Assembly (NCBI GenBank): GCA_021372575.1
Contig: JAJFUE010000029.1
Span: 22,646-86,645 of the forward strand
From: a bacterium
Lineage (GTDB): Bacteria; Sumerlaeota; Sumerlaeia; MVZB01
Direction: 5' to 3'
DNA: 64,000 nt
The position numbers and the translations under genes are program-made. A model generated the notes under the pieces. It was not told where the DNA came from. It worked only from the letters and a program-made list of their open reading frames with translations, and did not search any database. Positions 17,215-40,295 of the stretch are shown here, piece by piece. Position 1 is the first letter of the stretch. Each line of letters begins with the position of its first letter.

Positions 17215-17290
17215 GGCGCTATCGTCTAGGGGTCTAGGACGCTGGCCTCTCACGCCGGAAACAGGGGTTCGAATCCCCTTGGCGCTACCA
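17215..17290 (+). tRNA. tRNA-Glu (anticodon CTC), CCA encoded; the integration target of the island
   Basis: Aligns with E. coli tRNA-Glu along its whole length (TCGTCTAG…AGGAC…CTCAC…AACAGGGGTTCGAATCCCCT). Anticodon stem CTGGC/GCCGG, loop CTCTCAC, T-loop TTCGAAT, discriminator A, CCA. The acceptor stem has G1:U72 and U6:G67 wobble pairs. Confidence 0.75.
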
Positions 17291-17303
17291 AACTGAATTC
17301 GCA

Positions 17304-17337
17304 AGACTTAGCTGATGAAGCTAGGTCTTTTTTATTG
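17304..17337 (+). terminator. Rho-independent terminator after the tRNA-Glu gene
   Basis: 9-bp stem AGACTTAGC / GCTAGGTCT (one G:U), 7-nt loop, followed by TTTTTTATT. Confidence 0.5.
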
Positions 17338-17375
17338 TAGTAAGACCCCACGTTACACGGGTCATGTTACACGGG

Positions 17376-18470
17376 TCACTCCGATACACCATCTTTCTTG
17401 GGCTCAGGAAGCGCGATCTCCAGGATCGGAGCGGTCGGATGACAGTAACGCTCCGTAGTGCTGATCCGGTTGTGTCCAAGCGCCGCCTTGAGCGCGAACG
17501 CATTGTGCCCAACCATCTCAGCCATCAATGTCGCGTAGGTGTGGCGAAACGAATGCCCAGTAAGCTTTTGCCCGAGTGCATCATACTTGGGGATACCCGC
17601 TTTCTTTAGAACATCATCGAACTGGCGGCAGGCAGCGAAAAGACGCTTGAATACAAACGCTGTCTTTGAACGCTTCATTTGCGATTTAAGAGGCTCGATG
17701 ACCCATTCGGGCAACGGAATCACGCGCACCTTCGGATTCGCCTTAGCTGCCCCTTGACGCTGTTTGGCTGTTCTTAGCCTGATTAGGCTGTGCTCGAAGT
17801 CCACCTCGGTCTTGAGCAGCGGTTTGTGGGTGCTCATCGGAGAAGGCACGAGTTCTGCCTGACGCGCACCGGTGGCAAGCATGAGCAAGTAAAGCGGTTT
17901 GAGTCGAGCAGGACAAGCCTCGAAAAATTTGGCGAGTTCTTCATTGGTTAAAGCACGTTGTGCGGTTACCTTGCCTGGTTTAGGAGTGGGCTTCTGCACG
18001 TGGAATCCATTTACGCGCAGCATCCGGATCATATAGATCAGTTCCCGGTTGACGGTGCCGAGAGATCTCGTCTTTAGGCGATAACGTTGGAATTTCTCCA
18101 GTAGCTCGGTTGTGATCCTTTCCAGTTTGATGTCGCCGGCGTAGTTCAGGAAGTTCTTTAGCGAGAACTCAACCCGCTCACTCTGAAGGGGCGAGACGTC
18201 TATCTTGAGCCGCTGCACCTCTGCCTTGATCGCGTTGGAGAGAGTCAACGGGTCCCTTGGGTCAATCCGATAGCTCTCCGCCATCTCTTTGAGGCGCGGG
18301 ATCTCTTTAAGCGCTCGTTTCTTGTCCGTCTGCCCTGTTGAACGGCTCCAAGTCTTGCCATTCACCTCAGTCTGATAAATCCAAACGTTTCGACCTTTCA
18401 TACGACGTAAAACCATCGACAAAGCCTCTGTTGGGCTGCGCGCCCAGGAATGTATCTGCATGCGATTCAC
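17376..18470 (-). CDS. int: Tyrosine-type site-specific integrase (phage integrase family)
   Basis: 364 aa. C-terminal catalytic motifs …GHSFRHTYAT… and …LGHNRISTTERYCH… (H-x-x-R and the catalytic Y). N-terminal SAM-like/AP2-like DNA-binding region. Confidence 0.85.
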   Translation of the reverse strand: MNRMQIHSWARSPTEALSMVLRRMKGRNVWIYQTEVNGKTWSRSTGQTDKKRALKEIPRLKEMAESYRIDPRDPLTLSNAIKAEVQRLKIDVSPLQSERVEFSLKNFLNYAGDIKLERITTELLEKFQRYRLKTRSLGTVNRELIYMIRMLRVNGFHVQKPTPKPGKVTAQRALTNEELAKFFEACPARLKPLYLLMLATGARQAELVPSPMSTHKPLLKTEVDFEHSLIRLRTAKQRQGAAKANPKVRVIPLPEWVIEPLKSQMKRSKTAFVFKRLFAACRQFDDVLKKAGIPKYDALGQKLTGHSFRHTYATLMAEMVGHNAFALKAALGHNRISTTERYCHPTAPILEIALPEPKKDGVSE

Positions 18471-18974: not shown

Positions 18975-19205
18975 TCACGAAGAAGGTTTCATATCCAGGT
19001 GACTATACCGAGAAATCATCTCGATTGTGGAATGACCGAGGAGTTGCGCTACGCTGTATATGGGAGTTCCATTCATGACGAGATGTGAGTCATAGGCGTG
19101 TCTGAGGTCATGGACACGCACATTAGGCAAACCTGCATATTTCAGACTTTTTGAATTTGGTGCGGAAGTTTGTATCTTCACCATAGACTGCCTCTCCCGG
19201 TTCAC
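18975..19205 (-). pseudogene. C-terminal fragment of a tyrosine recombinase (remnant)
   Basis: The 76-aa ORF encodes only …VHDLRHAYDSHLVMNGTPIYSVAQLLGHSTIEMISRYSHL, the box II catalytic region, with no N-terminal domains. Confidence 0.5.
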
Positions 19206-19237: not shown

Positions 19238-21847
19238 TTAATCTTGAGCCTTTTGTTGCAGAAAATCAGACAACTCTTTCTTCACAAGTACTGGCATATC
19301 CACATCGCGCCATGTTTCTTGTTTTATCCAATCAAGACATTCTTCTTTTGTCAGTGAATCATTCGCAATTAAAGATGATATTTCTAGAGTCGTTGTTCGC
19401 GACAAGCCCATAGCAACCAATGCAAGTTGGGTTTTCTGTGAAACACCAAATTCCAACATATTGCTTATCTCTGGTATCTCAATGACAAGGTCTTGGCGTT
19501 CTTTACTACGGTAGAATAGATTTAGCATATCAATGTAGCATGCGAAATATTTGGGGGCTTCAAAGCGAGCATATTGTTCAACATCTTTCATTACATCCCG
19601 TATTACTTTGGCAACATGTTCCGGATGGCTCTTGAGCCGTTTGGATATCAGGACAGCCAACGGCATACCTCTCATCCAGAGAAGAATCAGATATGATATT
19701 TGGTAAATACGTTTTTCTGAAGGACCGAACGTGTTTGACAGGAATTCGTTAATAATTTTTATAATCCTTGCGTATACATCATACGCATCTCGACTTTCAG
19801 GCATTACAGGCTGCAATTGCGTTATGTCACCAGAATACGATTCGAAATACTTGACCAGATTTTCCATCGCATACGGACTGATGCCAGGGTGTTTTATAAT
19901 CATATTTTCAGGTATCGCAATCTTATTATGCGCTTCATCTATAAGCTCACTTAATAACTGAACTTTTTCAGGATTGATTCGTTTTGCCCACGGAGCTTTC
20001 TCGATTGACCCATACCGTGTTTTGTTCCACATTAGATACGATAATAAATAATCATATTCAGGTTTTTGACGAGCTATATTCCTTGGAGTTCTTTCATTCA
20101 CATAGGATATAAAATCATGTGCATCATTCATTATTCTGTCACTTGATCTCTCGATCATATACTTCTCTCTTATGCGTGGCGCACCACCCTCCCATACGTT
20201 TTCCTCTCTTGCGTCTATACAAAATATGTTTCCTTGGAATTCTTTTCCCCATCTTCCTGCTCGACCGGCTAGATTCCAAAAGTCCGCCGCACTCATTATG
20301 TTTCCATTGCCACGCTTAGGACCGCGCACAAAGATGTTTTTACAAGGAAGATTTACACCCTCCAGCAATGTAGATGTTGTGAATAAATACTTAATAACAT
20401 TCTTTACAAATAACCTCTCGATATTCATGCGTATTAGCAATGGCATATTGCCATAATGAAAAGCTATACCTTTTCTTAATACCGTTGCCAACAAGTAATG
20501 TTCATGTATAGTCTTTTGTACCAACTCAATCAATTCCCTCAACTCTCCATCAAGTTCCATTTCAGGCATAAGGTCGTACAACACGAATGATTCCTTTTCG
20601 GCGACCGCCGCCCCATTAACATAAATGAGATTGCCACCATCTGAACTTCCCAACCTTTCCGCAATAAAGGGGACCTTCTTCATTACACCGACCGGGCGAA
20701 ACAACAATTCGATAGTTCCCAGTGGCAACTCGCATTCTTGCACACATAATTCAAGCTTATATATTTTGGAATTGCGTGGTATTTGCGATATCCATATTAG
20801 ATTCTGGTTTACTGTAATTTGTTCGCTTGGAATTGATTTATTATTATCTTGCCTGGGTGCATCCTCAAAGAATATTTCTGGGTTTTGGGTGAGTGGGCTT
20901 GCAAATATGATCTTAATTTGCTCATTGATGGCACAACAATAGTCTAACACCTGTTGCAAAAGAGTCCCGCGATACCCATCACTAATCTTATGAGCTTCAT
21001 CAACGATGATTAGGTCTATTGTTCGATCCCTGAGTTCCATCAAAAGCAAATGAAGTCTCTCTTGGGTTAGAATGAACACATTGTGTTTACTGTTCGACAG
21101 TTCCACATTTAAGGGCATCTGGGAAATGATGACATTGGCAGATAAACCATTATCCTTCACCATAGCAAGACAATCCGATTCTACCTGTGTAATTAACGCA
21201 CGCGTCGGAACCACATAAACAGCACACATCATCCTATCGGATTTGCTGATTCGATCCATCAACCAATTTAACAATATATAGGATTTACCTGATGATGTCG
21301 GAGCCGATACGCTGAGCCAATCAATTTGCTCGGCTTCTTTCCACACCGATAATTGTAGGTCATTTAACGTAAGTACATTTCCATTTGCCATACCCACAGT
21401 ATGCTCAATGTTGTTATGTATCCATTCACAAGCAAGTCCCAGAGGAAGACGCCTTTCAAGATTCGTTTCCAAATAGCATCGATGAACTGCCAGATTAATT
21501 GCTGGGTAGTTCGCAAGTCTTTGCAATATAATCGCTGCTGTTTCCTTTTGTATTTTGGATGTATTCTCGTCAATCATGCAGGCTTGGGCTATCCGCAAAG
21601 CTGCATCCTGTTGTGATTCTTTATTAGATTGACACAAAATGCTGGCGCAAAATAATAAATATTTCCAGTCATGCTCGATCTCATACACGTTCTTTGTTAG
21701 ATTGGGGAACTGCGACATAACGGATTTAGCGGTCAGAAACGATAGCCGTTGCCGAAAATCCGTATTGTTCAATATCCATTCTTGTATTTTAACTAACCCC
21801 ATTTCCCCCCTCCAATTCTCTGCGAAACGATGTTCTAAAATCATCAA
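19238..21847 (-). CDS. Superfamily 2 DExH-box helicase, HamB-like (putative Hachiman helicase component)
   Basis: 869 aa. Motif I SAPTSSGKS, motif II VDEAH, motif V-like TSTLLEGVNLP, motif VI LAGRAGRWG. Sits immediately downstream of, and overlapping, a 340-aa partner gene, in an AT-rich island. Confidence 0.65.
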   Translation of the reverse strand: MMILEHRFAENWRGEMGLVKIQEWILNNTDFRQRLSFLTAKSVMSQFPNLTKNVYEIEHDWKYLLFCASILCQSNKESQQDAALRIAQACMIDENTSKIQKETAAIILQRLANYPAINLAVHRCYLETNLERRLPLGLACEWIHNNIEHTVGMANGNVLTLNDLQLSVWKEAEQIDWLSVSAPTSSGKSYILLNWLMDRISKSDRMMCAVYVVPTRALITQVESDCLAMVKDNGLSANVIISQMPLNVELSNSKHNVFILTQERLHLLLMELRDRTIDLIIVDEAHKISDGYRGTLLQQVLDYCCAINEQIKIIFASPLTQNPEIFFEDAPRQDNNKSIPSEQITVNQNLIWISQIPRNSKIYKLELCVQECELPLGTIELLFRPVGVMKKVPFIAERLGSSDGGNLIYVNGAAVAEKESFVLYDLMPEMELDGELRELIELVQKTIHEHYLLATVLRKGIAFHYGNMPLLIRMNIERLFVKNVIKYLFTTSTLLEGVNLPCKNIFVRGPKRGNGNIMSAADFWNLAGRAGRWGKEFQGNIFCIDAREENVWEGGAPRIREKYMIERSSDRIMNDAHDFISYVNERTPRNIARQKPEYDYLLSYLMWNKTRYGSIEKAPWAKRINPEKVQLLSELIDEAHNKIAIPENMIIKHPGISPYAMENLVKYFESYSGDITQLQPVMPESRDAYDVYARIIKIINEFLSNTFGPSEKRIYQISYLILLWMRGMPLAVLISKRLKSHPEHVAKVIRDVMKDVEQYARFEAPKYFACYIDMLNLFYRSKERQDLVIEIPEISNMLEFGVSQKTQLALVAMGLSRTTTLEISSLIANDSLTKEECLDWIKQETWRDVDMPVLVKKELSDFLQQKAQD

Positions 21848-22811
21848 CAGATGGAAATGGCAGGCAAAAGACTTCTATTTTGAAATTCTCAAGGTTCTCA
21901 TCTTTAATCCTAGCGCGTATCCGTTCGTGCCAATATGGGACCAACTCTGTCATTTCTTTAATGATTATTCCAATTTCCTTTTCATGGTTGACTAGTGGAT
22001 ACTTGTCAGAATCAAAACCGACTAAACATACGCCGCAATAATCATAGCGCAAGTAATTTGCGCTTCGAGGGTCTAGGTAGCTTATTAGTGCTCTTTCAAG
22101 CGCAGCGTCATTCAAATCCATATCACTTCGCAACAACTGCAAATCACGTTCCTGAGTTGCTCGTGATGATCCTTCATCCAATAAGAACGGAGCAAGACTG
22201 CTAAAGCACTCGCGAACTGAAGTGGCGGTATCCTTATGAAGCTTCGATTCCCCCCAATATAACTCCAATCTTCCAGTGTCCTCAACAACCATCGCATGAA
22301 CACCATCGCATCCGTGATAGTGCACTTGGGGGTTCGTCTTTAATGACATTTTCGATATTATCTGAGGCAAACCCAGGACGGATTCTGTCATCATCGATAA
22401 AAGAAGTTCCCCGCCTTCACCCGAAGTCTCAACGTTGGCAAACAAGTTTCGGGCTTCTCGTTCCAACCGGCAAAGATAACTTGATGATCCGGATCGCGCT
22501 CGAATGTTAATTGCGTCTTCGATTTTAGATCGGGGAATTGCATAATCCAATCGATCGTCGAATATCTTCATTATCAGATTGCCGACACAGGGAAGACCAT
22601 TCGGTCCATTTTTAAGCACATGGCAATACGCACGGGCTTTAGTGCCATCGACCTCGATTTTCACATCAAGCGATTCGAATAGCGTATCAACTTCGTATCG
22701 CTCATGCCGAACAAGACGTCTCAAGTGTGATGCAAGTAGTGGAGCGTCCGTCTGTAGATCTTTCGGTTCATAACTAGGAAGTGCGTCAGGACTCATGATG
22801 CCCCCGTTCAT
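21789..22811 (-). CDS. Hypothetical protein, candidate HamA (DUF1837)-like partner of the SF2 helicase
   Basis: 340 aa, co-directional with the helicase gene, which overlaps it by 59 bp. Family assignment rests on size and synteny only. Confidence 0.35.
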   Translation of the reverse strand: MNGGIMSPDALPSYEPKDLQTDAPLLASHLRRLVRHERYEVDTLFESLDVKIEVDGTKARAYCHVLKNGPNGLPCVGNLIMKIFDDRLDYAIPRSKIEDAINIRARSGSSSYLCRLEREARNLFANVETSGEGGELLLSMMTESVLGLPQIISKMSLKTNPQVHYHGCDGVHAMVVEDTGRLELYWGESKLHKDTATSVRECFSSLAPFLLDEGSSRATQERDLQLLRSDMDLNDAALERALISYLDPRSANYLRYDYCGVCLVGFDSDKYPLVNHEKEIGIIIKEMTELVPYWHERIRARIKDENLENFKIEVFCLPFPSVDDFRTSFRRELEGGNGVS

Positions 22812-22957: not shown

Positions 22958-24247
22958 TTAGAACAAATCTTTCAATCCTTTGGGTCTCGCTTTTGGCATA
23001 TCAGTGACAGGGATCTTCCGGTCGATCGTCGCTTCCTCGTCCAGTTCACCGATAAAGTCGTTCTTGATTCTGGATACTTGCATGGATATGCATTTCTCTT
23101 TGACCAAAGGCTTGATCTGATCCAGTTGCGGCAACTCGCGCCCTCTTTGGGTGCTCATGTAAACCCATCGTGTCGCGCGGGTAATCCCAACGAACAGCAA
23201 ATTCCGGATACGGTCAGGACTCATCTTATCGAAAAGCACTGGATCGAGCTTCGGCAGGAAAACCGAATCGAAGGTAAGTCCCTTGGCGCTGTGATATGGC
23301 ATCAGCTTGGGGTAATCGCTTCCAAAGTCCAAACCACGATACGTCGATTCTTTATGTCCCGCCTTCACTGGGACTTCCACTTCCAGACCAGCTTCCATGA
23401 GTGCTTTCGCGTAGCCATACACAAAACGTTTTTGCGGGAAGAGAATCGCGATGCGATCCCCCTTTTGCTGACGCGTCTTAATGGCTTCGATCAGACGATC
23501 TGTTTCTTCATCCTTGTCTGTCGCCAGGACGATCAAAGGCGTTTCCCGTTCGCCTTGCGACGTTTTAGTCTGACGAAGGTAGGCTTCGCGCTCTTGCGGA
23601 TCATCGATGAAGGTTGAAGCGATTTGAGAGATATAAGGGCAGCAACGATACGCTTCGAGCAACGACAGGTTCCGTTTGCGCAGTCCCAAAGCTTTCAGTA
23701 TGCCATCCTCAGAGGAACCGTGATCATAGATCTGCTGTTTATGATCCATGCAGACAGTCACGTGTTTGGCGATTTTTCTGAGGATTCCAAATACTGTGGG
23801 GGATAGATCCTGCCCTTCATCGACCAGAACGAAATCATAGGGGTGATTTTCAAAGCCTGGCATCTGGAGCTTCTTGAGAACGCCTTCCCGAATCGCTGTG
23901 AAATCAGGAGATTTACTTGTTTCATTCCACGGCGGTCGCTTGTTGATATGAACCGTATAGAAATCTCTGCACCATGCGTCAAAACTGATCACACACCCCG
24001 GATGTATGTTCAGCAGATCAAGCGCGCCATGGATGTAATCCTTGAGCGCATTGGTGTATACGAAAATGCGAAATCTGTCTGGCTCGATATTGTAGTTGTC
24101 GAGCAAGAAACGGGCGCGGTGAATCAGCGTCAAGGTCTTCCCCGACCCAGGCGCACCGAAGATCACCTTGTGCTCGTTCATCGGCATTTCAACTGCCCGA
24201 ATCTGATCGGGCGTCAATTCTTCCCTGGGAACCAGCCAGCTACTCAT
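22958..24247 (-). CDS. Short UvrD/Rep-like SF1 helicase (GajB-sized, about 430 aa)
   Basis: Walker A GAPGSGKTLTL, motif II VLVDEGQDLS, motif VI VGITRATRWVYMS. Start overlaps the stop of the upstream Hsp70-like gene (ATGA). Confidence 0.75.
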   Translation of the reverse strand: MSSWLVPREELTPDQIRAVEMPMNEHKVIFGAPGSGKTLTLIHRARFLLDNYNIEPDRFRIFVYTNALKDYIHGALDLLNIHPGCVISFDAWCRDFYTVHINKRPPWNETSKSPDFTAIREGVLKKLQMPGFENHPYDFVLVDEGQDLSPTVFGILRKIAKHVTVCMDHKQQIYDHGSSEDGILKALGLRKRNLSLLEAYRCCPYISQIASTFIDDPQEREAYLRQTKTSQGERETPLIVLATDKDEETDRLIEAIKTRQQKGDRIAILFPQKRFVYGYAKALMEAGLEVEVPVKAGHKESTYRGLDFGSDYPKLMPYHSAKGLTFDSVFLPKLDPVLFDKMSPDRIRNLLFVGITRATRWVYMSTQRGRELPQLDQIKPLVKEKCISMQVSRIKNDFIGELDEEATIDRKIPVTDMPKARPKGLKDLF

Positions 24248-26694
24248 TGCCGGTCCTCCTTATGCGCCCGTTCGGGGAGTTCCCCCGTGACACCTAGTGC
24301 CTGGGTCTTCAGCTTTCGCGATTTTCTCGTTCTATCTACCTCGGCTATTCGCTTCGCATCGTTTTTCATGCGCGAGGCGCGCTCATACCATAAAAGCTCC
24401 CATTCCGTCATCGTCTCAACAGATTGAAATAGCTCAAAAGCCATTTCGAGGGACTGGTCGCGTGTCTTCGCTTCTTTCATCGAATCCGCGATCTGGGCTT
24501 TTAGGACAAGATAGGCAGGAGCTACTTGAACGTCCAGCGCTTCATCAATTGCTTTGGCAGCTTTATCCAGCAATCCCCGACTGCGATAACTCAAAGCAAG
24601 GTTGAAGAGCGGTCCGCCCCAATTCGCAAAGCGAGCCGATTCCCGGAGGAATTTTTCCTCACGGTTGTAATCGCCCATCTCACCAGCCAGCAGCCCCATC
24701 TTGTTCAGGATTTCCTCGTCCTGCCCGCCGCGCACTCGTAACATCTGGCTATAAAGATGCATCGACTTGTCCCGCTGTCCAAGTTCCGAGCAAAGCCCGG
24801 CAATTTCCATCACGACTTCTTCCTGCTTGGCTTGGGACATCTTTTTGCTGCGCATCTGCTCTTCAAGCTCATCGATCCGTATTTTCTTGCTGTTTGGATT
24901 GACGATATTACTCAAGGGGTTTTCGATCGTGGCGTCGAATCCCTGGTGCCCCTGATTGCTTTGCGTATCAATCCGCAAGTTGATGATCTGATTTTCATCC
25001 ATGTGATACTGGAGGACTAATCGCTCACCTTGAGTTGGTCGGGTTTCCATGTTCCAGACACCGGAGAATAAACTCTGCCCTTTCTCACCCACCAACTCCA
25101 CATGCAACTGCAAAGGCGACCGGCTGCTTCCCTTTGGCACAACCAGGGAGTCGTTTTCGGACCATTCACCTTCAGCCGGATAGGGCAATCGCGCCCCACG
25201 AGGAATCAGCTCAAGCGGCTCGTCCGCTGTTTTAATGGACACGCTTTCAGCGCATACCGGACGTACCAATCCATGCCCGCACATTTCCAACATCAAGGCA
25301 TGGTAAGCTGCACCTTTGGCGACCGCAGTCTGGATATCATCCTGCGAGTCGTAGCTCAAAACTTCAGCCAACCCAAAGTATTCCGAGACCGCCTCAACGA
25401 CCTGAGGAATCAGGCAACTCCCACCAACGAGCAAACATAAATCAATGTCGTCGCTCGTCAGAGATGCCCGATCGAGCCCGTCGGCAAGCGGGGCGAAGAT
25501 TGAACAAGTCATTCGGTATTCGGATTCCCGATGGAAAACAAAATCCGAGTCGAGGAACGGAGTTAAGACGGTGTCCAGTTGGATCGCGCTCAGACGAGGC
25601 GATTGAATCCGAAGTTCCCGCCCATTGGGCAGCTTGCAGGTGTGAACGCCGGGCTGGATCTTAAACGTCTCGCTTTTGCGTGCCTCATCGTATTTTCCAA
25701 ATCGTTTGAGTGTTCGGATTTCACTGCACAACCCTATTTTCAATGACTCAGCGAGACTAAGGAACGCCGGTTCAAGCTGATTCTTCTTCGTGTCGAAATC
25801 CAGATCGTGAGCGCACAAGCCGTTTTGTTCAATGATCTGCGGGATCAGCACTTCGTAGAGGATTGACGAATCGATGTCCCCTCCGCCCAGGCGATGATAG
25901 CGCGATACGGAGAGCGGTGAGATCTCAAGCATAGCCTCGTCTTCGGCGATGCCTATTCTGAAGATCGCAACGTCACATGTGCCGCCACCGAAATCGAACA
26001 CCAGGAGATTCTTCGTTTCGCCGGGTTCGAGGATCGTGCTGAGGTCGTGGGTTAAGACGTAATCCAGGAACGCGGCGATCGGCTCGTCAAGCAGATCTCC
26101 GCCACGCACATCGTATCCAGCCAGACGTGCGGCATCGAGCGTGTCCTGGCGCTGAGCGGCTTGGAACGAGGCGGGAACGGTGATCACGGTCCGAGCCACT
26201 GGTTCGTCCTGGTCTGACGAGCTTTGAGTTTTCAGGAAGGCGAGGACCTTGGAGGCGATATCCTTGGCGGACTGGAAGCCATCGGGGGCACGGTGATAGG
26301 TCTTATCGAGCCCCATGTCGTTCTTGCAGTCCCAGAAGATGTTGCGGTTACGCGCGAGACCGTAGTCGGGATCGGCGGCTTTGCCCCTGAGTCGCTTGGC
26401 ACCCTCGCCGACGAAAAGCTGCCCATCATGAACGGCAACAACCGAGGGGACAAGCGAATGGGTGTATCGCCCTTCCAGGGTTCCCTGGTCGATCTCGACA
26501 CATCTGGCGGCTGCCTCTTCCTCGTCCTTGGGATTAAACACAACCTCGGCGACCGTCGAGTTGGTTGTCCCCAGGTCAATGCCGATGACCCGAATGGGTT
26601 GCTTCGATTTTCGTGCTCCAGCCCCCCGCAACAGGTTGGCGATCTTCATTCGACAGTTCCTTCCTGAGCCGAAATGACCCGTAAGCTCGTGCAA
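24244..26694 (-). CDS. Hsp70/DnaK-like actin-fold ATPase (nucleotide-binding domain) fused to a C-terminal TPR-like helical domain
   Basis: 816 aa. Phosphate-1 IGIDLGTTNSTVA, connect-1 LLVFDFGGGTCDVAIF, adenosine motif, then a C-terminal roughly 250 aa with TPR-like repeats. No Hsp70 substrate-binding-domain signature is evident. Confidence 0.7.
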   Translation of the reverse strand: MHELTGHFGSGRNCRMKIANLLRGAGARKSKQPIRVIGIDLGTTNSTVAEVVFNPKDEEEAAARCVEIDQGTLEGRYTHSLVPSVVAVHDGQLFVGEGAKRLRGKAADPDYGLARNRNIFWDCKNDMGLDKTYHRAPDGFQSAKDIASKVLAFLKTQSSSDQDEPVARTVITVPASFQAAQRQDTLDAARLAGYDVRGGDLLDEPIAAFLDYVLTHDLSTILEPGETKNLLVFDFGGGTCDVAIFRIGIAEDEAMLEISPLSVSRYHRLGGGDIDSSILYEVLIPQIIEQNGLCAHDLDFDTKKNQLEPAFLSLAESLKIGLCSEIRTLKRFGKYDEARKSETFKIQPGVHTCKLPNGRELRIQSPRLSAIQLDTVLTPFLDSDFVFHRESEYRMTCSIFAPLADGLDRASLTSDDIDLCLLVGGSCLIPQVVEAVSEYFGLAEVLSYDSQDDIQTAVAKGAAYHALMLEMCGHGLVRPVCAESVSIKTADEPLELIPRGARLPYPAEGEWSENDSLVVPKGSSRSPLQLHVELVGEKGQSLFSGVWNMETRPTQGERLVLQYHMDENQIINLRIDTQSNQGHQGFDATIENPLSNIVNPNSKKIRIDELEEQMRSKKMSQAKQEEVVMEIAGLCSELGQRDKSMHLYSQMLRVRGGQDEEILNKMGLLAGEMGDYNREEKFLRESARFANWGGPLFNLALSYRSRGLLDKAAKAIDEALDVQVAPAYLVLKAQIADSMKEAKTRDQSLEMAFELFQSVETMTEWELLWYERASRMKNDAKRIAEVDRTRKSRKLKTQALGVTGELPERAHKEDRQ

Positions 26695-26725
26695 GCAGGC
26701 ATTTGGGTCCGCGACATCCGATCGT

Positions 26726-32800: not shown

Positions 32801-32804
32801 ATCA

Positions 32805-34301
32805 ATGGGCCCTGGCCAAACAAGTAACTTGCGACGCGTCGCGGTGGTCGGGGCGGGGCTCGGCGGGCTCAGCGCCGCGATTCATCTTCGTCTGCGCGGA
32901 TTCGACATCACGCTCTACGAAGCAGGGGAACAAGTTGGCGGCCGCGCGAATCGGATTTCCGAGGGCGGGTTCACCTTTGACACGGGTCCGACCCTGCTCA
33001 ATTATCCCTGGGTCTTCGAACAGCTTTTCGCGGACGCCGGCAAAAGGCTTGAGGATTATGTGGAATTGCTGCCGGTCGAACCCTCCATCCGATATCTGTG
33101 GCCCGGGGGCGAGAGCCTGGGGCTGACGAGCAATCTGATCGGACTGGTGCGGGAATTCCAACGCCTGGAGCCGGGGTCGGGACCCGGGCTGTTCGCCTTT
33201 CTCGACGATGCGGCCGAAAAGTACCGTTTCTCATTCGACAAAATGGTCTGCTGCAATGTCGACAACCCGCTGCGATGGCTGGGCGCCTTAACCCCGCGGG
33301 AAATGCTGCGCTCCGGAATCTGGCGCAGCCTCGACCGGGAACTGGCGCGGTTTTTCCGCAGTCCGCTGATTCGCGAGGCGCTCGGGTCCTATGGCATGTA
33401 TCTTGGCGGTTCCCCGCATCGGCTACCCGGGATCTTCTCGATATTGCCTTACGGCGAGCTGGCGATGGGGCTCTGGCTGCCGCGCGGCGGGATCTACGGT
33501 CTGGTTCTTGGGATCGAAAAATTGGCGCGCGAAATGGGCATTCGCATTCTCACCAGACAGCGGATCCAGCGCATCATCCAGCGCGCCGGCGCCATTGCCC
33601 AGTTGGAGTTTGCCGATGGCCGAATCGAGGACTGGCCGCTGGTCATCGCCAATGTGGACGTCCCCACGGTCCAGCATCGGCTCCTGGCCGGCGACGGCTA
33701 CCGGCCGCCCAAACCCCTGAAGATGACCCCCGCGGTCATGACCTTTTACTGGGGTGTTCAAGGCGAGATCGGCGGCGCCGGGCATCATACGGTCTTCATG
33801 CCTCAGGATAGCGCGCGCGCTTATCATGAACTCATCGTGCGCCACCGGATCCCCGAAGTACTTCCGTTTTACATGAGCATCGCTTCGGCGACCGATCGGG
33901 CGCTGGCGCCTCCCGGCGCTTCAACCGTGATGATCCTGGTCCCCTTGCCTCAGCCGGCCCATTTGCAGGGTATCGACGAAAGCCGACTCAAGGACGATAT
34001 CAGGCAGCGGGTTCTTGACAGACTGGGACAACATCGAATCGAAATCCCGCGGCAGGCCATCGTCATGGAACGGATCATGGCACCGGCGCAATGGGGCGAA
34101 CGCTTTGGACTTTTTGAGGGCTCCGCATTCGGCGCGGCGCACACTCTTTTCCAGATGGGCGCGTTCCGCTACCCCAATCGCGAGCGGGGCGTCCGGGGAT
34201 TATACTACACCGGCGCCAGCACAACGCCCGGAACAGGATTGCCCATGGTGGTCCTCAGCGGAAGAATGACCGCGGAAAGGGTCTGCTCGGATGTTTGTTA
34301 A
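32805..34301 (+). CDS. crtI: Phytoene desaturase family FAD-dependent oxidoreductase (CrtI-like)
   Basis: 498 aa. N-terminal dinucleotide fold VAVVGAGLGGLSAAIHL…EAGEQVGGRA. CrtI-family length. Confidence 0.7.
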   Translation: MGPGQTSNLRRVAVVGAGLGGLSAAIHLRLRGFDITLYEAGEQVGGRANRISEGGFTFDTGPTLLNYPWVFEQLFADAGKRLEDYVELLPVEPSIRYLWPGGESLGLTSNLIGLVREFQRLEPGSGPGLFAFLDDAAEKYRFSFDKMVCCNVDNPLRWLGALTPREMLRSGIWRSLDRELARFFRSPLIREALGSYGMYLGGSPHRLPGIFSILPYGELAMGLWLPRGGIYGLVLGIEKLAREMGIRILTRQRIQRIIQRAGAIAQLEFADGRIEDWPLVIANVDVPTVQHRLLAGDGYRPPKPLKMTPAVMTFYWGVQGEIGGAGHHTVFMPQDSARAYHELIVRHRIPEVLPFYMSIASATDRALAPPGASTVMILVPLPQPAHLQGIDESRLKDDIRQRVLDRLGQHRIEIPRQAIVMERIMAPAQWGERFGLFEGSAFGAAHTLFQMGAFRYPNRERGVRGLYYTGASTTPGTGLPMVVLSGRMTAERVCSDVC

Positions 34302-35073
34302 GCAATATGGATCGGGCGATCGGCTCTTTCTTTGCCTGCATGGCTGGGGTGGCGACCACCGGGAGTTTGCCCCCCTGGCATCTCGACTGCCCGAAGGCGC
34401 GTGTCTGCTGAGCGTCGATTTGCCGGGCTATGGACAAAGTCCCAGACCGGCTGAGTGGACGATGGATTCCATCGTGTCCGGGTTGCGTGGCGAGCTTGAC
34501 CGCCGCTCGGATCAACCCTGGACGCTTGTCGGATTCTGCAGCGGCGCGATCCTGGCTCTGCTTATCGCCACGCAGGCCCCGGAACGGGTGCGGCGTGTTG
34601 TCCTCATCGATCCGTTCGCATTCGTCCCGTGGTACTTCCGGATATTCCTGGCCGGCGAATTCGGCCGCCGCGCATATCACACAACCTTCCAGACCCACGC
34701 GGGCCGCGCGCTCACCGATTGGGTGCTCAAACGATTCCAGACCGCCGATGCCGACTTCACGCGCTCCTTCGTCAACCTGGATCACGAAGTCACCCTGCGC
34801 TACCTGGAATTACTCGGCACCGTTGAAATCCAACAGTTCCGCGGCCTCTCGATGGCCATCGACATCATTCATGGCAAGCACACATTCCGTGCCGTCCGCC
34901 GCTCGGTCGGGATTTACCGCAAGCTCTGGCCGCACTCGCAGGTGAGGATTCTGCCCGGCGTGGGGCACCTGCCGATGATCAAGGGTGCCCGGCAATTGGC
35001 GGCAATCATTTTCGGATCTCCCGACGGCGAGGCTGCCGGCAGTCAACCGTTGCGGGACCCATCGTCAAAATGA
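34291..35073 (+). CDS. Alpha/beta-fold hydrolase/acyltransferase with a GxCxG (Cys) nucleophile elbow
   Basis: 260 aa. HGWGGD oxyanion region, nucleophile elbow VGFCSGA, C-terminal GVGHLPM His region. Confidence 0.55.
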   Translation: MFVKQYGSGDRLFLCLHGWGGDHREFAPLASRLPEGACLLSVDLPGYGQSPRPAEWTMDSIVSGLRGELDRRSDQPWTLVGFCSGAILALLIATQAPERVRRVVLIDPFAFVPWYFRIFLAGEFGRRAYHTTFQTHAGRALTDWVLKRFQTADADFTRSFVNLDHEVTLRYLELLGTVEIQQFRGLSMAIDIIHGKHTFRAVRRSVGIYRKLWPHSQVRILPGVGHLPMIKGARQLAAIIFGSPDGEAAGSQPLRDPSSK

Positions 35074-35212
35074 ACCGATGGACCGGGGCTTGGATAATCT
35101 TTGGGCTTTTCCCACATGGGTGCGATGATGTAAAAAGAAACGGTCAACGAGTAGAACATTTTTATCAGCGTCAATCGGGTCATAACCTTCTCCGTCGTGT
35201 GAGTGATGCAAG

Positions 35213-36157
35213 GTGTCCATGATGAGCCGTGAACTTGCGGAATTCCTGGCGCGCTATGGCAAGCAACTCGAAATGAGCCTGGTTGAGTGGCTGCCGCGAT
35301 CGGACCGGCCCGGAACCGACAGGTTCAACGAGGCGCTGCATTACGCCCTGTTTCCCGGCGGAAAACGGATGCGTCCGCTTTTTTCGCTGCTCGCGGTCAA
35401 TACGGTCGGCGGCGATCCCGAAGCCGCCCTGCCGATGGCCTGCGCCATGGAATATCTGCATACCTGCTCATTAATATTTGACGATCTGCCGGCCATGGAC
35501 AACGCGCCGCTGCGTCGCGGCCGCCCTGCCGTCCATGCGGCCTTCGGCCAAGACGTTGCCATCCTGGTTGCATTGGCCCTGTTCAATCAGACCTATGCGT
35601 TGGTTCATCAGGCCGGGTGCAGGGGCTCCGACACGGCACGGCTGGCGCGCCTCATGAATGAGCTGGCCGTCTGCATCGGGCCGGACGGCATGATCGGCGG
35701 GCAGGTGGTGGACCTCTGGTTGAGAAGCCATGCGGATGAGCGTCTCCGGCCGATCAGTTACCTGAAGACGACCGCTCTGATGCGCCTGATGCTCATGGCG
35801 GGCGGGATCGTCGCCGGGGCACGCGAGGATCAATTGGAAGCGCTGTTGAAATATGGCGAAAACCTTGGCATGGCTTATCAGCTCCTCGATGACATCGTCG
35901 ATGAGGCGGAAGATCCCGCAACTTCGGCCCATGGCGCGGGCGTCGATGCCGCCGCATACCGGAGGAACGCCGACGCATATCTGGCGGAAGCGCGCCGCGG
36001 ACTCACCGATCGCCTGCCGCATGCCCAGACGAAGCTGCTCCTGGAATTCACGGACCTGATATTTGAACAGCTCAAAGCGCAAGCCATCCCCACCCTGGAA
36101 GGTCTGTCCGCATCACCCATGGTCAATTCCCCGGCCGCCCAAAGCCCCGCATGGTGA
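35213..36157 (+). CDS. crtE: Polyprenyl (geranylgeranyl) diphosphate synthase, CrtE-like
   Basis: 314 aa. FARM LIFDDLPAMDNAPLRRG and SARM YQLLDDIVD. Confidence 0.75.
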   Translation: MSMMSRELAEFLARYGKQLEMSLVEWLPRSDRPGTDRFNEALHYALFPGGKRMRPLFSLLAVNTVGGDPEAALPMACAMEYLHTCSLIFDDLPAMDNAPLRRGRPAVHAAFGQDVAILVALALFNQTYALVHQAGCRGSDTARLARLMNELAVCIGPDGMIGGQVVDLWLRSHADERLRPISYLKTTALMRLMLMAGGIVAGAREDQLEALLKYGENLGMAYQLLDDIVDEAEDPATSAHGAGVDAAAYRRNADAYLAEARRGLTDRLPHAQTKLLLEFTDLIFEQLKAQAIPTLEGLSASPMVNSPAAQSPAW

Positions 36158-36164
36158 GCAGTTC

Positions 36165-37331
36165 ATGGAAATCGTCCTGATACTGCTGCTGTTCACCAAC
36201 CTGGGAATCCTTGCTCTGGTCGTCTGGAACAGCCTGGCCTGGCCCAAAGCGGGAATATCCATCGAAAACCGGAACGAGACGGGGGAAACCTGCTCGATTC
36301 TGATTCCGGCGCGAAACGAGGAAAACAACATCGGCGCCTGTCTGGACGCGGCGATGGCCCAGGCGAGCCCCGTGCGCGAAATCATCGTCTGTGACGATCA
36401 TTCCGAAGACGCCACCGCCGCCCTCGCGCGCGGATATGCCCTGCGGGACTCACGCATCCGGCTGATCGAGGCGATGGAACTTCCCGAGGGCTGGTGCGGC
36501 AAGCCATTCGCCTGCGCCACGCTCGCCGCGGCCGCCCGATGCGACTGGCTTCTGTTTATCGACGCCGACACGCGTCTGGCGACCGGGGCCGCCGAGCGGA
36601 TGATGGACGAAGCCATCCGGAAAAAGCTCAGCTTGCTTTCCTGCTGGCCGGGCCTGGTTCTGGAGGGTTTCTGGGAAAAGACGTTGATGCCCATGCTGAA
36701 CTTCGTGGTCTTCACGCTTTTCCCGGCCCCCCTCTCGCTTCTGCGCCCCGATCCCTCGCTCGGCCTGGCCCATGGCGCCTGTATCCTGATCCGGCGAGCC
36801 GACTACGAAAAAAACGGCGGCCATCGCCTGGTGTCCGATCGATTATTCGAGGATACCGCGCTGGCTCGCGCCTGGCGCGCCGGCGGCCGGCGCAGCCTCT
36901 GCCTGGATGGCCAGGACCTCGTTCGCGTTCGGATGTATGATTCGCTGGATGGAATCTGGACCGGATTTCAGAAGAACTTTTTCCCCGCGTTCAGGAAAAC
37001 GCACGGCTTCTGGATGTTCATCCTGCTGCATATGGTCGTATTTTGGTTTCCATTTATTGCCTGTCTCCTGTCCGCCATCCTGGGTTGGGGGTTCCGGCTC
37101 GCCGCAGCAAGCGCCGCGTGCGTCCTGGCGATGCGAGCCGTCCAGGCCTGGCGTTTCCGCTATCCGGCCTGGTCCGTGTTGCTCCACCCACTTGCTGAAG
37201 GGATGCTGCTTGCGGTTGGACTCAGTTCCTGGTGGCGCTGCCGGAGCGGGCGTGGCGTAACCTGGAAAGGCCGGATCTATTGCCCATCCAGAGCCCCGGG
37301 GGGTATGAAGCGGAGTCCCATGCATGAATAA
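36165..37331 (+). CDS. Family 2 glycosyltransferase (carotenoid glycosyltransferase CruC/CrtX-like)
   Basis: Start MEIVLILLL at 36165 (ORF track begins at 36063). N-terminal TM helix, GT-A motifs ILIPARNEE, CDDHSED…, DAD. Confidence 0.6.
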   Translation: MEIVLILLLFTNLGILALVVWNSLAWPKAGISIENRNETGETCSILIPARNEENNIGACLDAAMAQASPVREIIVCDDHSEDATAALARGYALRDSRIRLIEAMELPEGWCGKPFACATLAAAARCDWLLFIDADTRLATGAAERMMDEAIRKKLSLLSCWPGLVLEGFWEKTLMPMLNFVVFTLFPAPLSLLRPDPSLGLAHGACILIRRADYEKNGGHRLVSDRLFEDTALARAWRAGGRRSLCLDGQDLVRVRMYDSLDGIWTGFQKNFFPAFRKTHGFWMFILLHMVVFWFPFIACLLSAILGWGFRLAAASAACVLAMRAVQAWRFRYPAWSVLLHPLAEGMLLAVGLSSWWRCRSGRGVTWKGRIYCPSRAPGGMKRSPMHE

Positions 37332-38796
37332 ACCCCACGCCGCTGTTATTGGTGGAGGCCTCGGCGGATTGGCCGCCGCGTTGCGCTTGGCCGTCCGCCA
37401 CTGGGATGTGACTGTCTTTGAGCAGGGAAACATGCTCGGCGGCAAAATGAATCGCTGGTCGCGGGACGGTTTTCAGTTCGATACCGGACCCTCGCTAATC
37501 ACCATGCCTTGGATTTTCTCGGAACTCTTCGCGGCCGCGGGCGAAGACTTGCGGGACCATCTCCAATTGCAGCTTGTCGACCCGCTCGCCAATTATATCT
37601 TTGATGATGGCGTTCGGTTTCAGGTTGCGGCGTCGCTGCCGAAGTGGCTTGCGACCCTGCGTCGGCTTGAGCCTCGCGGCGACCGCCATTTTCTCGAATT
37701 CATGCAGCATGGCTCGCGAATTTATGAGCTTTCCGCGCGCACCTTTTTCCGCCGCCCGCCCACCGAGCCCCCCGATCTGGCGGGACTGGCCGCGTTGCGC
37801 TTTTTCCCATTGCGTCGCGCCTGGGGCCGATACGACCGGGCCGTGGAGTCCTTCTTCAAGAGTCCCCACCTGCGCCAGTTGTATCAGCGTTTTTCCACCT
37901 ACGTCGGCTCCTCCCCCAGCCGCATTCCGGCCATGCTGCTCCTGATTCCCTACCTCGAACACGCTTTCGGCGGATGGTATGTTCCGGGCGGACTCTATCG
38001 TATCATCGAGAGCCTCACCGCCCTGGCGGAGCGGCGGGGAGTCAGCCTGCGCATGAATCAGCGCGTTGCGCGGATCGTTTCCCGCGCCGGCAAAGTCGTC
38101 GGCGTTGAACTGGGAGACGGCTCGTTTCACGCCTGTGACGTGGCGATCATGAACGGTGACGCCTCGATGGCGCAAGTTCTGCTCGGTGAGAAGAACGCCG
38201 CCCCGCTGCCCGAATCCCAACGCTCGCTCTCGGGCTTCGTGATGCTGCTGGGCATCAGGCGGCGGCTTGCGGACCTTGGGCATCACACGGTTTATTTTTC
38301 CGCGGATTATCGGCGGGAATTCGATGATCTTTTCACGCGCCGCCGCTTTCCCGCGGAACCGACGGTCTATGTCAGCATGCCCAGCCGCAGTGATCGATCG
38401 ATCGCGCCCGAAGACGGCGAAGCGCTGTTTATCATGGCCAACGCTCCGGCCAACGATTGCGACGCATGGGACGATCATGCTGTCGGCGAGGCCCGCCATC
38501 GCATTTTTGAACGGTTGCAAAAAGGCGGTTTCCCCGAGATTGAGCGGGATATCGCCGTATCGAACATCTGGACACCCCGACGCATGGCGGCCGCATATGA
38601 CATGCCCGGCGGCGCGATTTACGGCTCGCACTCCCACGGCTGGCGCCACGCCTTTCTGCGTCCGCCCAATCAAGATCGGCGCCATCGCGGCCTTTACTAC
38701 GTGGGGGGGAGCGTTCATCCCGGCGGCGGAACGCCGACCGTTCTGATGTCGGCCCGCATCGTCAGCGAGATGATTTGCAAAAATGAAGCCCAGTAA
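37324..38796 (+). CDS. Phytoene desaturase-family enzyme, CrtD-like (carotenoid 3,4-desaturase) candidate
   Basis: 490 aa. AAVIGGGLGGLAAALRL…FEQGNMLGGK. Second CrtI-family paralog in the cluster. Confidence 0.65.
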   Translation: MNKPHAAVIGGGLGGLAAALRLAVRHWDVTVFEQGNMLGGKMNRWSRDGFQFDTGPSLITMPWIFSELFAAAGEDLRDHLQLQLVDPLANYIFDDGVRFQVAASLPKWLATLRRLEPRGDRHFLEFMQHGSRIYELSARTFFRRPPTEPPDLAGLAALRFFPLRRAWGRYDRAVESFFKSPHLRQLYQRFSTYVGSSPSRIPAMLLLIPYLEHAFGGWYVPGGLYRIIESLTALAERRGVSLRMNQRVARIVSRAGKVVGVELGDGSFHACDVAIMNGDASMAQVLLGEKNAAPLPESQRSLSGFVMLLGIRRRLADLGHHTVYFSADYRREFDDLFTRRRFPAEPTVYVSMPSRSDRSIAPEDGEALFIMANAPANDCDAWDDHAVGEARHRIFERLQKGGFPEIERDIAVSNIWTPRRMAAAYDMPGGAIYGSHSHGWRHAFLRPPNQDRRHRGLYYVGGSVHPGGGTPTVLMSARIVSEMICKNEAQ

Positions 38797-39514
38797 GTTA
38801 CTGCTTTCAGTGCTGATCGCGGCCTACGCCGTTCTATGGGTGGGCGGCGTGATCAGTTATGTTTTTCGAGGGACTCCACCCTCCGATAGCCGATGGACCG
38901 CGCCGCTCTTTCTGGCCCTAGCCGCCGCGGTTGCGCTTGTCCTGACAGCGCCATCATTTCGCCTTTCCCTGCTAAATGTGGGATTGATCGGACTGGCCGC
39001 CGAACTTGCCGGGGTGCGCTGGGGGTATCCGTTTGGCCGCTACACATACACCGGAACGCTGTCTCCCCAAATCATGGGCGTGCCGGTCGTCATGGGTTGC
39101 GCCTGGTTGTTGCTGTTTGCCTATGTCAAGACGATGCTTCATTTATGCGGGATGAACCGATCGTGGCAGCCGATTTACGGCGCGGTCTGGATGCTCGCGC
39201 TGGACCAGCTGATCGATCCGCTCGCCTCCGGCCCTCTCGGCTATTGGATCTGGCTGGATCAGGGGTGGTACTACGGCATTGCCCCGATGAATTTCGCCGG
39301 CTGGTTTCTAGTCGGTCTTGTCTTGTTTGTGATTTTTCGCGGCCCGTGGCCGTATCGCTCCGGAATCGCCAGGGTGGGTCTTAGCATCATTATATTTTTC
39401 TCCTTGATCGCCTTGGCCCGCGGCCTTTACGGCCCCCTGCTGGTTGGCGTTGCCTTGTGCCTGCTGCATGGATACCTGCGGCGGCGTTGGCGGAGTCGGA
39501 CGAGCGGACTTTAA
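38783..39514 (+). CDS. Integral membrane carotenoid biosynthesis protein (CruF / carotenoid 1,2-hydratase-like family), tentative
   Basis: 243 aa, 6 to 7 TM helices, Trp/Tyr-rich GYWIWLDQGWYYG segment. Last gene of the carotenoid cluster. Confidence 0.45.
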   Translation: MKPSKLLLSVLIAAYAVLWVGGVISYVFRGTPPSDSRWTAPLFLALAAAVALVLTAPSFRLSLLNVGLIGLAAELAGVRWGYPFGRYTYTGTLSPQIMGVPVVMGCAWLLLFAYVKTMLHLCGMNRSWQPIYGAVWMLALDQLIDPLASGPLGYWIWLDQGWYYGIAPMNFAGWFLVGLVLFVIFRGPWPYRSGIARVGLSIIIFFSLIALARGLYGPLLVGVALCLLHGYLRRRWRSRTSGL

Positions 39515-40042
39515 TCCATCGATGACGGCGTAAAGCTGTTGCAGCGACGCCGGGACAGCCTGGCTCAATGTCCGGTGTTGAATCAACCCGTCGGGATTCA
39601 TCACCACAACGAATGCCTTGCCCCCGGGATATTCGTATTTTCGAGCCACATCGCCAAGCCAATCGAGCATGACCGGAAACTTGATGTTACACCTGAAAAG
39701 ACCCTTCACGAGGGGTCGAATCCTGACAGGCACATTGCCCAACTGGGCCACGCCGAGGATAACAATCGTATCCTTGTATCGCTCATAGAGCGGTCGCACC
39801 CAACTATCAACCTGGGCGCTGCCAGTTTTATCGGCAAAAACGAGCACGCATACTTTTTCCTGGGGATAATGAATCTCGTAGCGCTTGCCATATTGGTCGT
39901 CCAGGCTGAAGGAACTGGCCAGCGTGCAAGTTGTCTGGGCTGAAACCGCGAGCACGGGCGGAAAGATCGGAAACAGTCCAATCCACATCATACAATGGAT
40001 TATTCCTCGCAGCTTCATCGTGAATTCCCGGCATTTCTTCAT
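39308..40042 (-). CDS. Secreted thioredoxin-fold / redoxin-like protein (tentative)
   Basis: Signal peptide MKLRGIIHCMMWIGLFPIFPPVLAVSA. Convergent with cruF and overlapping its 3' end. Low-complexity C-terminus. Confidence 0.4.
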   Translation of the reverse strand: MKKCREFTMKLRGIIHCMMWIGLFPIFPPVLAVSAQTTCTLASSFSLDDQYGKRYEIHYPQEKVCVLVFADKTGSAQVDSWVRPLYERYKDTIVILGVAQLGNVPVRIRPLVKGLFRCNIKFPVMLDWLGDVARKYEYPGGKAFVVVMNPDGLIQHRTLSQAVPASLQQLYAVIDGLKSARPTPPTPPQVSMQQAQGNANQQGAVKAAGQGDQGEKYNDAKTHPGDSGAIRPRAAKNHKQDKTD

Positions 40043-40247
40043 GGTGTTCGGAATGCGTGAATTTATTTTATCGTGTATCAGGCAGAAATCAAAATCGAAT
40101 CGGAACAGATAATTAATCGCATCCTGACTTCGACATCGGTTCCCCATTGTGGTTCCCCATTGGCCATGATTTTACTTGTTCAAATGAATCTTGATGACGC
40201 ATAACAGCGTTGTAATTAATCATCTTGCGAAATATTGAGAGCCCGTT

Positions 40248-40295
40248 TGGCCTTTCACGCCGGAAACAGGGGTTCGAATCCCCTTGGCGCTACCA
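40248..40295 (+). repeat. 48-bp direct repeat of the tRNA-Glu 3' half (attR-like); carries anticodon TTC instead of CTC
   Basis: TGGCCTTTCACGCCGGAAACAGGGGTTCGAATCCCCTTGGCGCTACCA matches 17243..17290 at 47 of 48 positions. The upstream sequence does not continue the tRNA 5' half. Confidence 0.7.

Follow-up and report, generated by a model that had tools for sequence, protein, structure and literature searches.

The question raised by this locus is whether the arrival of a genomic island has changed the anticodon of a bacterial tRNA. The window, i.e. the whole stretch of 64,000 nucleotides (nt) analysed here, comes from contig JAJFUE010000029.1 of a metagenome-assembled genome (MAG) of the Sumerlaeota (BRC1), an assignment that the proteins encoded in the flanks bear out. 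It contains an intact tRNA-Glu gene with the anticodon CTC, the last 48 nt of which are repeated at 40248-40295 with one mismatch, C17249 versus T40254. This mismatch corresponds to tRNA position 34, the wobble base, which is the third base of the 7-nt anticodon loop. Our reading, to which we give a probability of roughly 0.6, is that the segment 17291-40247, about 23 kb, is a genomic island (island 1) that was inserted by its tyrosine integrase, int1, into a native tRNA-Glu(CUC) gene. The T at 40254 is found only in the non-functional copy, while the working gene reads CTC; the working tRNA has not been re-coded but rebuilt exactly, and the part of the gene at 17215-17290 that lies 3' of the crossover is island-supplied. 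The features that define the two junctions, including the attachment (att) sites, are the following.

17109-17184, plus strand: tRNA-Gln(CTG), upstream neighbour of the target gene, outside the island (ARAGORN; Rfam tRNA model, 69.6 bits)
17215-17290, plus strand: intact tRNA-Glu(CTC), the integration target (ARAGORN; Rfam, 58.5 bits)
17243-17297, plus strand: attL, comprising 4 nt of the anticodon stem, the loop CTCTCAC, the remaining tRNA and 7 nt beyond it, with the wobble C at 17249
17291-17378, plus strand: P' arm of island 1, with a CTGA...ACTTAG motif, a terminator-like hairpin with a T run (17303-17329) and two GTTACACGGGTCA repeats (17352-17378)
17376-18416, minus strand: int1, tyrosine integrase of 346 amino acids from the ATG (PF00589), with the R, HxxR, H and Y motifs present; the open reading frame (ORF) extends to 18470
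40138-40162, plus strand: two GGTTCCCCATTG repeats, P arm of island 1, about 85 nt left of attR
40248-40302, plus strand: attR, the displaced 3' fragment of the tRNA, with T at 40254 (wobble position) and A at 40298

The full direct repeat extends beyond the tRNA: a repeat search gives 55 nt (17243-17297 and 40248-40302) at 96% identity with two mismatches, the second of which, C17293/A40298, lies 3 nt past the CCA. The 41-mer immediately 3' of the anticodon has exactly two copies in the window (17250-17290 and 40255-40295), with shuffled sequences giving an expectation of 0, and no third or degraded att copy was found when the whole window was searched by blastn-short with the tRNA as query. 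For the tRNA-derived part, ARAGORN, Rfam and the repeat search bear out what an earlier note on this DNA had described, namely a 48-nt repeat of tRNA-Glu(CTC) with a single mismatch at the wobble base. The tyrosine integrase that the note placed next to the intact copy is likewise borne out by the PF00589 match of int1 (E = 1.5e-14). Rfam detects no tRNA in the window beyond tRNA-Gln(CTG) and tRNA-Glu(CTC); the distal copy at 40248-40302 has no 5' half and is called a tRNA by neither ARAGORN nor Rfam, which speaks against its being part of a full tRNA gene.

By the Islander criteria, the locus combines an intact tRNA gene with a directly oriented fragment of it on one replicon, and it has a tyrosine integrase, not of the Xer or integron type, inside the interval and beside the tRNA gene. 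Composition and content are foreign as well, with a GC content at third codon positions (GC3) of 0.39-0.75 in the cargo, a drop in tetranucleotide correlation, and the presence of defence and insertion sequence (IS) genes. The int1 stop codon is 86 nt from the tRNA end and is abutted by the two GTTACACGGGTCA repeats, which are presumed to be arm-type sites.

A contig that joins two strains or misplaces the repeat, with C and T being mere population variation, might produce the same picture. The source is indeed a MAG, assemblies typically break at repeats of about 50 nt, and the Logan assembly does so at these two. Nevertheless, we regard an assembly artefact or a strain mixture as very improbable. 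An exact-protein look-up matched the desaturase-like gene at 37324-38796 (it returned no record for pspF or for two versions of the ORF at 39308-40147) and thereby gave the Logan contig of the distal junction, L094 of run SRR15035648, which reads ...TTTGGCCTTTCACGCC... and ends exactly 30 nt after the T. On the attL side, the Logan contigs of this run are 100% identical to the window, and the contig there ends at 17263. At both junctions, the contigs thus stop at the precise points where a k=31 graph is expected to branch with two genuine mismatches, which indicates that both mismatches are present in an independent assembly, the independence being that of the assembly, as the reads are possibly the same ones that were used to build the MAG. 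In addition, the architecture at both junctions is typical of the integrase family to which int1 belongs.

The integrase family and its attachment sites

This family comprises int1, an integrase found at the same tRNA in the related genome GCA_032942435.1 (locus L002, 59% identity) and int2, a further integrase in the window (43% identity). It is a small family, since only 65 of 5.8 billion proteins match int1 at E<=1e-30; among the Logan proteins, P0241 is identical to int1 and P0242 is a 92% relative. Most metagenome relatives with 44-55% identity and enough flanking sequence show a convergent tRNA just past the integrase stop codon (L006, L007, L009-L015 and L018; the remainder are short or have no tRNA call). 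The tRNAs found beside int1-family integrases are Val(CAC), Val(GAC), Asp(GTC), Arg(CCT), Glu(CTC) and Glu(TTC). Two of these loci have both island ends on the contig, L010 (tRNA-Asp) with a perfect 51-nt repeat, and L011 (tRNA-Glu TTC) with a perfect 44-nt repeat and an older 36-nt copy. In both of them, the first base of the anticodon loop is also where att identity sets in, and tandem repeats comparable to the GGTTCCCCATTG pair are located to the left of attR.

In the window, identity starts in the anticodon stem-loop and covers the rest of the tRNA, which is the pattern of class A att sites. The att site is therefore of the common anticodon-centred type; from the repeats we infer the position of the crossover, with the wobble base inside a presumed 7-bp overlap. 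Anticodon-centred sites form the largest Islander class, with 2083 of 3919 islands (PMC4383910), the sublocation classes being those of Williams 2002 as that paper cites them.

The P' arms of the family also have a common layout. After the tRNA come (N)CTGA, about 10 bases, and (A/G)NTTA(C/G) opening a hairpin, often with a T run, and the arm ends with two direct repeats of 8-13 nt just before the integrase stop codon. The P' arm of island 1 shares this layout with family members at other loci, and a Logan contig from another sample (L088, SRR32314418) has a similar P' arm at the same tRNA 3' end, along with an integrase that is 92% identical to int1.

The genome that contains L002 also has its tRNA-Glu(UUC) occupied by an int1-family member with 44% identity (L092 10001-11162, GCA_032942435.1, JAWDGN010000511.1), in an element that carries a D5-type primase and an ArdC-like gene as well. 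With L002 on Glu(CUC) and L092 on Glu(UUC), one genome thus has family members on both Glu isoacceptors. No distal repeat was found within the accessible flanks of the L090 and L092 islands.

The CTC anticodon and the origin of the wobble-base T

We scanned the 48-mer, with a Y at the wobble position, against one genome each of 185,579 species. The single match is a complete tRNA-Glu(CTC) gene in a Sumerlaeia MAG (L001), and no TTC version of this tRNA 3' half occurs in these genomes. The L001 gene differs from that of the window by 1 nt, in the acceptor stem, and lies in an integrase-free vicinity with a uniform GC content of 0.64-0.73 and housekeeping neighbours; its flank does not show the P'-arm layout of the family. 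An identical tRNA-Glu(CTC) is found in L002 and L003 (GCA_032942435.1, whose pspF is 90% identical), where it is adjoined by the different int1-family integrase mentioned above. The metagenome loci L009 and L018 have the same tRNA body type with CTC, and the tandem of Gln and Glu tRNAs recurs in L002, L003 and L018.

The body of the CUC-type genes is GGCGCTA/TGGCGCT, and all five of them share the G1:U72 pair, as opposed to G1:C72 in the UUC genes. The tRNA-Glu(UUC) of the L002 genome (L092) has a canonical GTCCC...GGGGAC body with many differences from the distal copy, and the UUC genes of both L092 and L011 differ from the displaced fragment at many positions of the stem, T-arm and acceptor. 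Codon usage in the core genes of the window favours GAG over GAA (164 vs 73), and CAG over CAA (60 vs 15). The CUC isoacceptor, its body and its G1:U72 pair are, as judged from these comparisons, native traits of the lineage, with CTC as the ancestral state; the earlier note had called the isoacceptor uncommon in bacteria and the pair unusual. The comparison with related genomes that the note had proposed reveals no ancestral TTC, as L001, L002, L009 and L018 are all CTC.

These data bear directly on the two histories that the earlier note had offered for the mismatch. In the first, a host tRNA-Glu(UUC) would have been given an element-borne CUC 3' part. The displaced fragment does have the T and the rebuilt gene the C, and an insertion in the anticodon loop can in principle supply everything 3' of the crossover. 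Nevertheless, both halves of the gene form the GGCGCTA/TGGCGCT body, which carries CTC in the island-free L001 and in L002, L009 and L018; the related UUC gene has the GTCCC/GGGGAC body; the TTC 3' half is missing from all the species genomes scanned; and core codon usage favours GAG. We consider this anticodon swap highly improbable. In the second history, the distal 48-mer would be the remnant of a separate second tRNA-Glu gene and not an att site. It does read TTC, the commoner Glu anticodon in bacteria, but it has no 5' half, and it is a CUC-type 3' half, identical except for the wobble base and different at many positions from the UUC gene of the L002 genome, which diverges in both halves. 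It is also in direct orientation at the far end of a foreign segment that bears an integrase, and its left boundary is at the anticodon stem-loop, like the other att sites of the family. This second history is, in our view, extremely improbable. As the 5' half is host-derived in any model and already has the CUC-type body, both the conversion from UUC and the second-gene reading fail.

The T most likely arose, at slightly better than even odds, by a C-to-T substitution in the dead copy after integration, a history that asks for a single neutral mutation and for nothing out of the ordinary from the enzyme. Lambda-type tyrosine recombinases are strongly inhibited by heterology in the overlap, and since the T falls within the presumed 7-bp overlap, it should make excision more difficult and thereby help fix the island. 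As an alternative to coincidence, an overlap mismatch may have been favoured because it stabilises useful cargo.

A more tentative explanation, and in our estimate a rather unlikely one, is that the T predates integration. An attP core CTTTCAC would have recombined with the host CTCTCAC across a one-base heterology, and segregation of the heteroduplexes would have left the C in attL and the T in attR. This explanation gains from the position of the mismatch within the 7-nt loop where att identity begins in the family, and from the presence of the family on both Glu(CUC)/Glu(UUC) and Val(CAC)/Val(GAC), which indicates that lineages have moved between isoacceptors differing at position 34. It would also account for an attR that is otherwise nearly perfect in a possibly old island. 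On the other hand, the inhibition of lambda-type recombinases by overlap heterology applies here as well, and an attP that matches the CUC body at 47/48 positions with the wrong anticodon would endanger the host tRNA. In addition, no attP was recovered and the repeats of L010 and L011 are perfect. The probability left after post-integration substitution and attP heterology is spread over exotic histories and artefacts. That the wobble difference is functional, either through a tolerance of int1-type integrases for position 34 (isoacceptor hopping) or through selection of the T to block excision, seems doubtful to us.

Several observations weigh against an island in a native tRNA gene whose displaced fragment mutated later. 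The first concerns age. Island genes show 80-84% nt identity between the window and L088; when the window is compared with another contig of the L088 sample, the hydrogenase operon shows about the same value, 82-84%. If both contigs of that sample belong to one genome, the island backbone would be as old as the split of the lineages, and a neutral attR should then carry more than 1-2 changes. The near-perfect attR hints at constraint on attR, at re-integration, or at a T that is older than the integration. Second, a random single substitution would hit position 34 with a chance of only about 1/48, and the loop with a chance of 7/48. Third, att identity in the window begins 4 nt before the loop, in the stem, unlike in L010 and L011. 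Finally, neither an excised form nor a truly empty orthologous site was recovered from scans of viral contigs and from the loci of relatives, and because of this, the order of events is one that we infer.

L001 does carry this tRNA in an unoccupied state, but its neighbouring genes are different ones, and L002 has a different island at the orthologous site. The pspF homologues lead to L002 and L003, where the contig ends inside the other island, and to L004, where pspA is beside pspF and there are no tRNAs, while the hydrogenase homologues lead to L085-L087, with CbiMQO upstream and no tRNA. As synteny is broken on both sides, there is no clean empty site. Viral contigs scanned for free or viral forms with the att pattern, an alignment of the integrases and the P-arm repeat yielded nothing, and a looser tRNA-Glu pattern matched only an unrelated tRNA cluster of a jumbo phage among them.

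We also observe that the tRNA hot spot is a synteny break point. In L004, a 79% relative, pspF is divergent from a pspA-pspB-pspC operon (8942-11029), and in the window (15946-17100) and in L002, the tRNA-Gln/tRNA-Glu pair and the islands are found on that side of pspF. No psp operon was seen in the window.

Layers of foreign DNA between 17.3 and 50.3 kb

The earlier note had suggested sequential insertions or an older att remnant, and this part of its proposal is supported by the remnant of a second integrase, by the P'-arm layout at the distal flank and by a search with a P'-arm hidden Markov model (HMM). The first two of these are the following features.

18975-19205, minus strand: C-terminal remnant (76 amino acids) of a second tyrosine integrase, with 79% amino acid identity (tblastn) and 83% nt identity to the 373-amino-acid L002 integrase
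40296-40372, plus strand: putative remnant of the P' arm of an earlier element that belonged to the int1 family, with ATGA...CACTTACGG, a hairpin and two CGTACACCGG repeats (40348-40370)

The flank of the distal copy reads aaATGAaactaaagCACTTACGG, then a hairpin, then CGTACACCGG twice, which is the layout of the family. The HMM was trained on the first 32 nt after the tRNA in ten further members of the family, and the window was searched on both strands. Its top two hits are at 17293-17318 (first) and 40299-40325 (second); the E-values are weak (0.21 and 1.1), yet both hits are exactly at the predicted positions. No integrase remnant was found after the distal copy, either by tblastn or in a six-frame reading of 40296-40760. 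A parallel pattern is seen in L011, where attR1, the first distal copy, is followed by a P' arm without integrase. The sequence of this flank suggests that the tRNA was rebuilt by an earlier relative before island 1 arrived, and that this relative left its P' arm and perhaps some cargo.

The second integrase is intact (373-392 amino acids) in two relatives, L002 (93-1214) and L088 (5828-7006). In the window, what is left of it lies beside the defence genes of island 1, the gene content of which is as follows.

19238-22811, minus strand: Hachiman defence system, with the helicase HamB (19238-21847) and HamA (21789-22811)
22958-24247, minus strand: UvrD-like helicase
24244-26694, minus strand: Hsp70-like ATPase of 816 amino acids
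26726-27355, minus strand: DprA/PsyrA-like protein
27362-28039, minus strand: ORF of 225 amino acids
28177-31223, minus strand: two IS481-family transposase ORFs, one degenerate (28177-29259, E = 5e-15) and one strong (about 30254-31223, E = 9.8e-65; NCBIfam), with Pfam rve
31319-39514, plus strand: DUF2867 fragment followed by a carotenoid cluster (Pfam), between attL and attR

The Hachiman system consists of adjacent full-length HamB1 (PADLOC, E=0) and HamA1 (PADLOC, E=5.6e-106), with Pfam matches to HamA (E=6.6e-53) and DEAD. Together with the two IS481-family ORFs, it confirms the AT-rich defence module and the IS elements that had been read from the sequence. The genes at 22958-28039, labelled from Pfam, PADLOC and NCBIfam matches, may be island backbone or a candidate defence module, perhaps an undescribed defence or maintenance module. 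The 816-amino-acid Hsp70-like ATPase has a weak C-terminal TPR match, and no PADLOC model matched it.

L088 carries, besides its intact second integrase, the same UvrD-like and Hsp70-like genes (L088 1-3462; 82-83% nt and 89% amino acid identity). Between the second integrase and the UvrD-like gene, where the window has Hachiman, L088 has a NERD gene and a gene of 435 amino acids. This points to an exchangeable slot for defence cassettes, the swap having also deleted most of the second integrase in the window.

The carotenoid cluster has seven genes, encoding a phytoene synthase, two phytoene-desaturase-like oxidases, a hydrolase, a polyprenyl synthase, a GT2 glycosyltransferase and a Caroten_synth protein; an unannotated ORF stands between the cluster and the distal repeat. 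An IS-bounded composite transposon around the carotenoid genes was considered and rejected, because IS481 copies flank these genes only on the left and terminal inverted repeats were not found.

The composition of the whole 17.3-50.3 kb region is foreign and mosaic. GC3 is 0.80-0.94 in the flanking core genes, about 0.4 in Hachiman and the 225-amino-acid ORF, about 0.6 in int1, int2 and the UvrD-like, Hsp70-like and DprA-like genes, and 0.70-0.75 in the carotenoid genes; only the IS481 copies, at 0.78-0.88, are host-like. Compared with the core, the GC3 of the carotenoid genes indicates cargo from a moderately GC-rich donor, and not the native-looking cluster described in the earlier note. Nor does the foreign DNA end at 40295, as had been assumed, since it continues to about 50.3 kb with two further features.

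40707-48938, plus strand: second foreign block, with an NMT1-type ABC transporter, a carbamoyltransferase and unannotated ORFs (Pfam)
49285-50205, minus strand: int2, third integrase of the int1 family, 43% identical to int1, with about 75 N-terminal residues missing

The genes at 40.7-48.9 kb have a GC3 of 0.47-0.70. The second foreign block includes three unannotated ORFs of 371, 419 and 319 amino acids, and a small CxxC-rich ORF is found at about 48977-49206. int2 adjoins the core [NiFe]-hydrogenase and hyp operon, which starts at 50406 and has a core-like composition. When 48.9-50.4 kb was read and the sequence upstream of int2 translated, no att site or tRNA remnant was seen beside int2, only the truncation. 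In the relatives L085 and L087, CbiMQO is upstream of the hydrogenase operon, in the position of int2, which suggests that CbiMQO was probably lost from this junction by deletion. int2 would thus be the remnant of a further element.

Taken together, these observations are consistent with the following mechanism. int1 would recombine in or at the anticodon loop of the native tRNA-Glu(CUC), and integration would rebuild the tRNA gene from the element's own 3' copy while adding a terminator and two arm-type repeats. The previous 3' part would be displaced to 40248-40302; it would in turn have been supplied by an earlier element of this family. The region 17.3-50.3 kb would then consist of three or more elements accumulated at a single tRNA hot spot, changed later by the swap of a defence cassette, by IS481 insertions and by deletions. 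The Islander definition of a tandem array provides each member with its own integrase and its own tRNA-gene fragment; only island 1 has both, so this is not a tandem array by that definition.

Outside the foreign region, the window shows some further features. The segment 12000-14500 has a lower GC content (0.52) and no counterpart in the syntenic regions of L002 and L004. Within the same part of the window are a 51-nt tandem repeat of at least 3 units (12653-12839) and direct repeats of about 80 nt, 1255 nt apart (12965-13044 and 14221-14299). A palindromic repeat of about 30 nt, GTTCGTAGTCCCGCCTTCAGGCGGAA, has four copies (12616-12646, 15867-15897, 15918-15951, which is inverted, and 16103-16135) that lie around and apparently within the pspF region, with the appearance of repetitive extragenic palindromes or miniature inverted-repeat transposable elements. 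On the minus strand, 11711-11765 matches the Rfam small RNA family Acido-Lenti-1 (39.7 bits, with a gathering threshold of 37). Two sites 3.7 kb apart, 3508-3552 and 7224-7268, share a 45-nt repeat, (CTCGTG)n(TAATCG)n, at 96% identity; the repeat is also found in L004.

Known systems and what the locus means

The locus resembles the class A tRNA-gene islands of Islander in its intact tRNA with a displaced 3' fragment in direct orientation, its tRNA-proximal tyrosine integrase, its rebuilt gene and its foreign cargo, and in a block of identity that starts at the anticodon stem-loop and ends shortly beyond the tRNA 3' end. It differs from them in its Sumerlaeota host, in the small size of its integrase family and in att copies that differ at the wobble base. 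With tandem arrays it shares the reuse of one tRNA gene by one integrase family, the newest element being nearest to the gene and the older att sites and arms being pushed outward. Here, however, the second element is reduced to a P' arm of about 80 nt and possibly some cargo, and the third to a truncated integrase without att. Tandem integration has reportedly been seen for SGI1 as well. Islander lists 125 tandem arrays (PMC4383910). The Hachiman system, with adjacent HamA (DUF1837) and HamB helicase in a mobile element beside other helicase and ATPase genes, is nothing unusual.

The nearest precedent for an anticodon swap is the tRNA-dependent lysogeny of mycobacteriophages, a documented case of a host tRNA being altered by integration at its gene. 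The attP/attB core of these phages measures only about 10 bp, and integration destroys the host tRNA, a loss that is made good by a tRNA gene of the phage (PMC10865867). In the window, by contrast, the tRNA is rebuilt exactly and ARAGORN finds no element-borne tRNA gene. We think it probable that the locus is an ordinary integrase-driven island of the anticodon-centred att type that carries phage-defence and pigment genes.

If a tolerance of int1-type integrases for position 34 were true, integration could re-code the host anticodon in half of the progeny. If the T is a pre-existing heterology or blocks excision, it is a data point on the role of the overlap sequence in restricting integrase host range and on the fixation of islands. 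As it stands, the locus is a worked example showing that a mismatch between att copies at the wobble base need not signal tRNA re-coding. It also documents a tRNA-targeting integrase family in the little-studied Sumerlaeota, including its attP arm layout, its repeated occupation of a tRNA gene and a variable defence slot.

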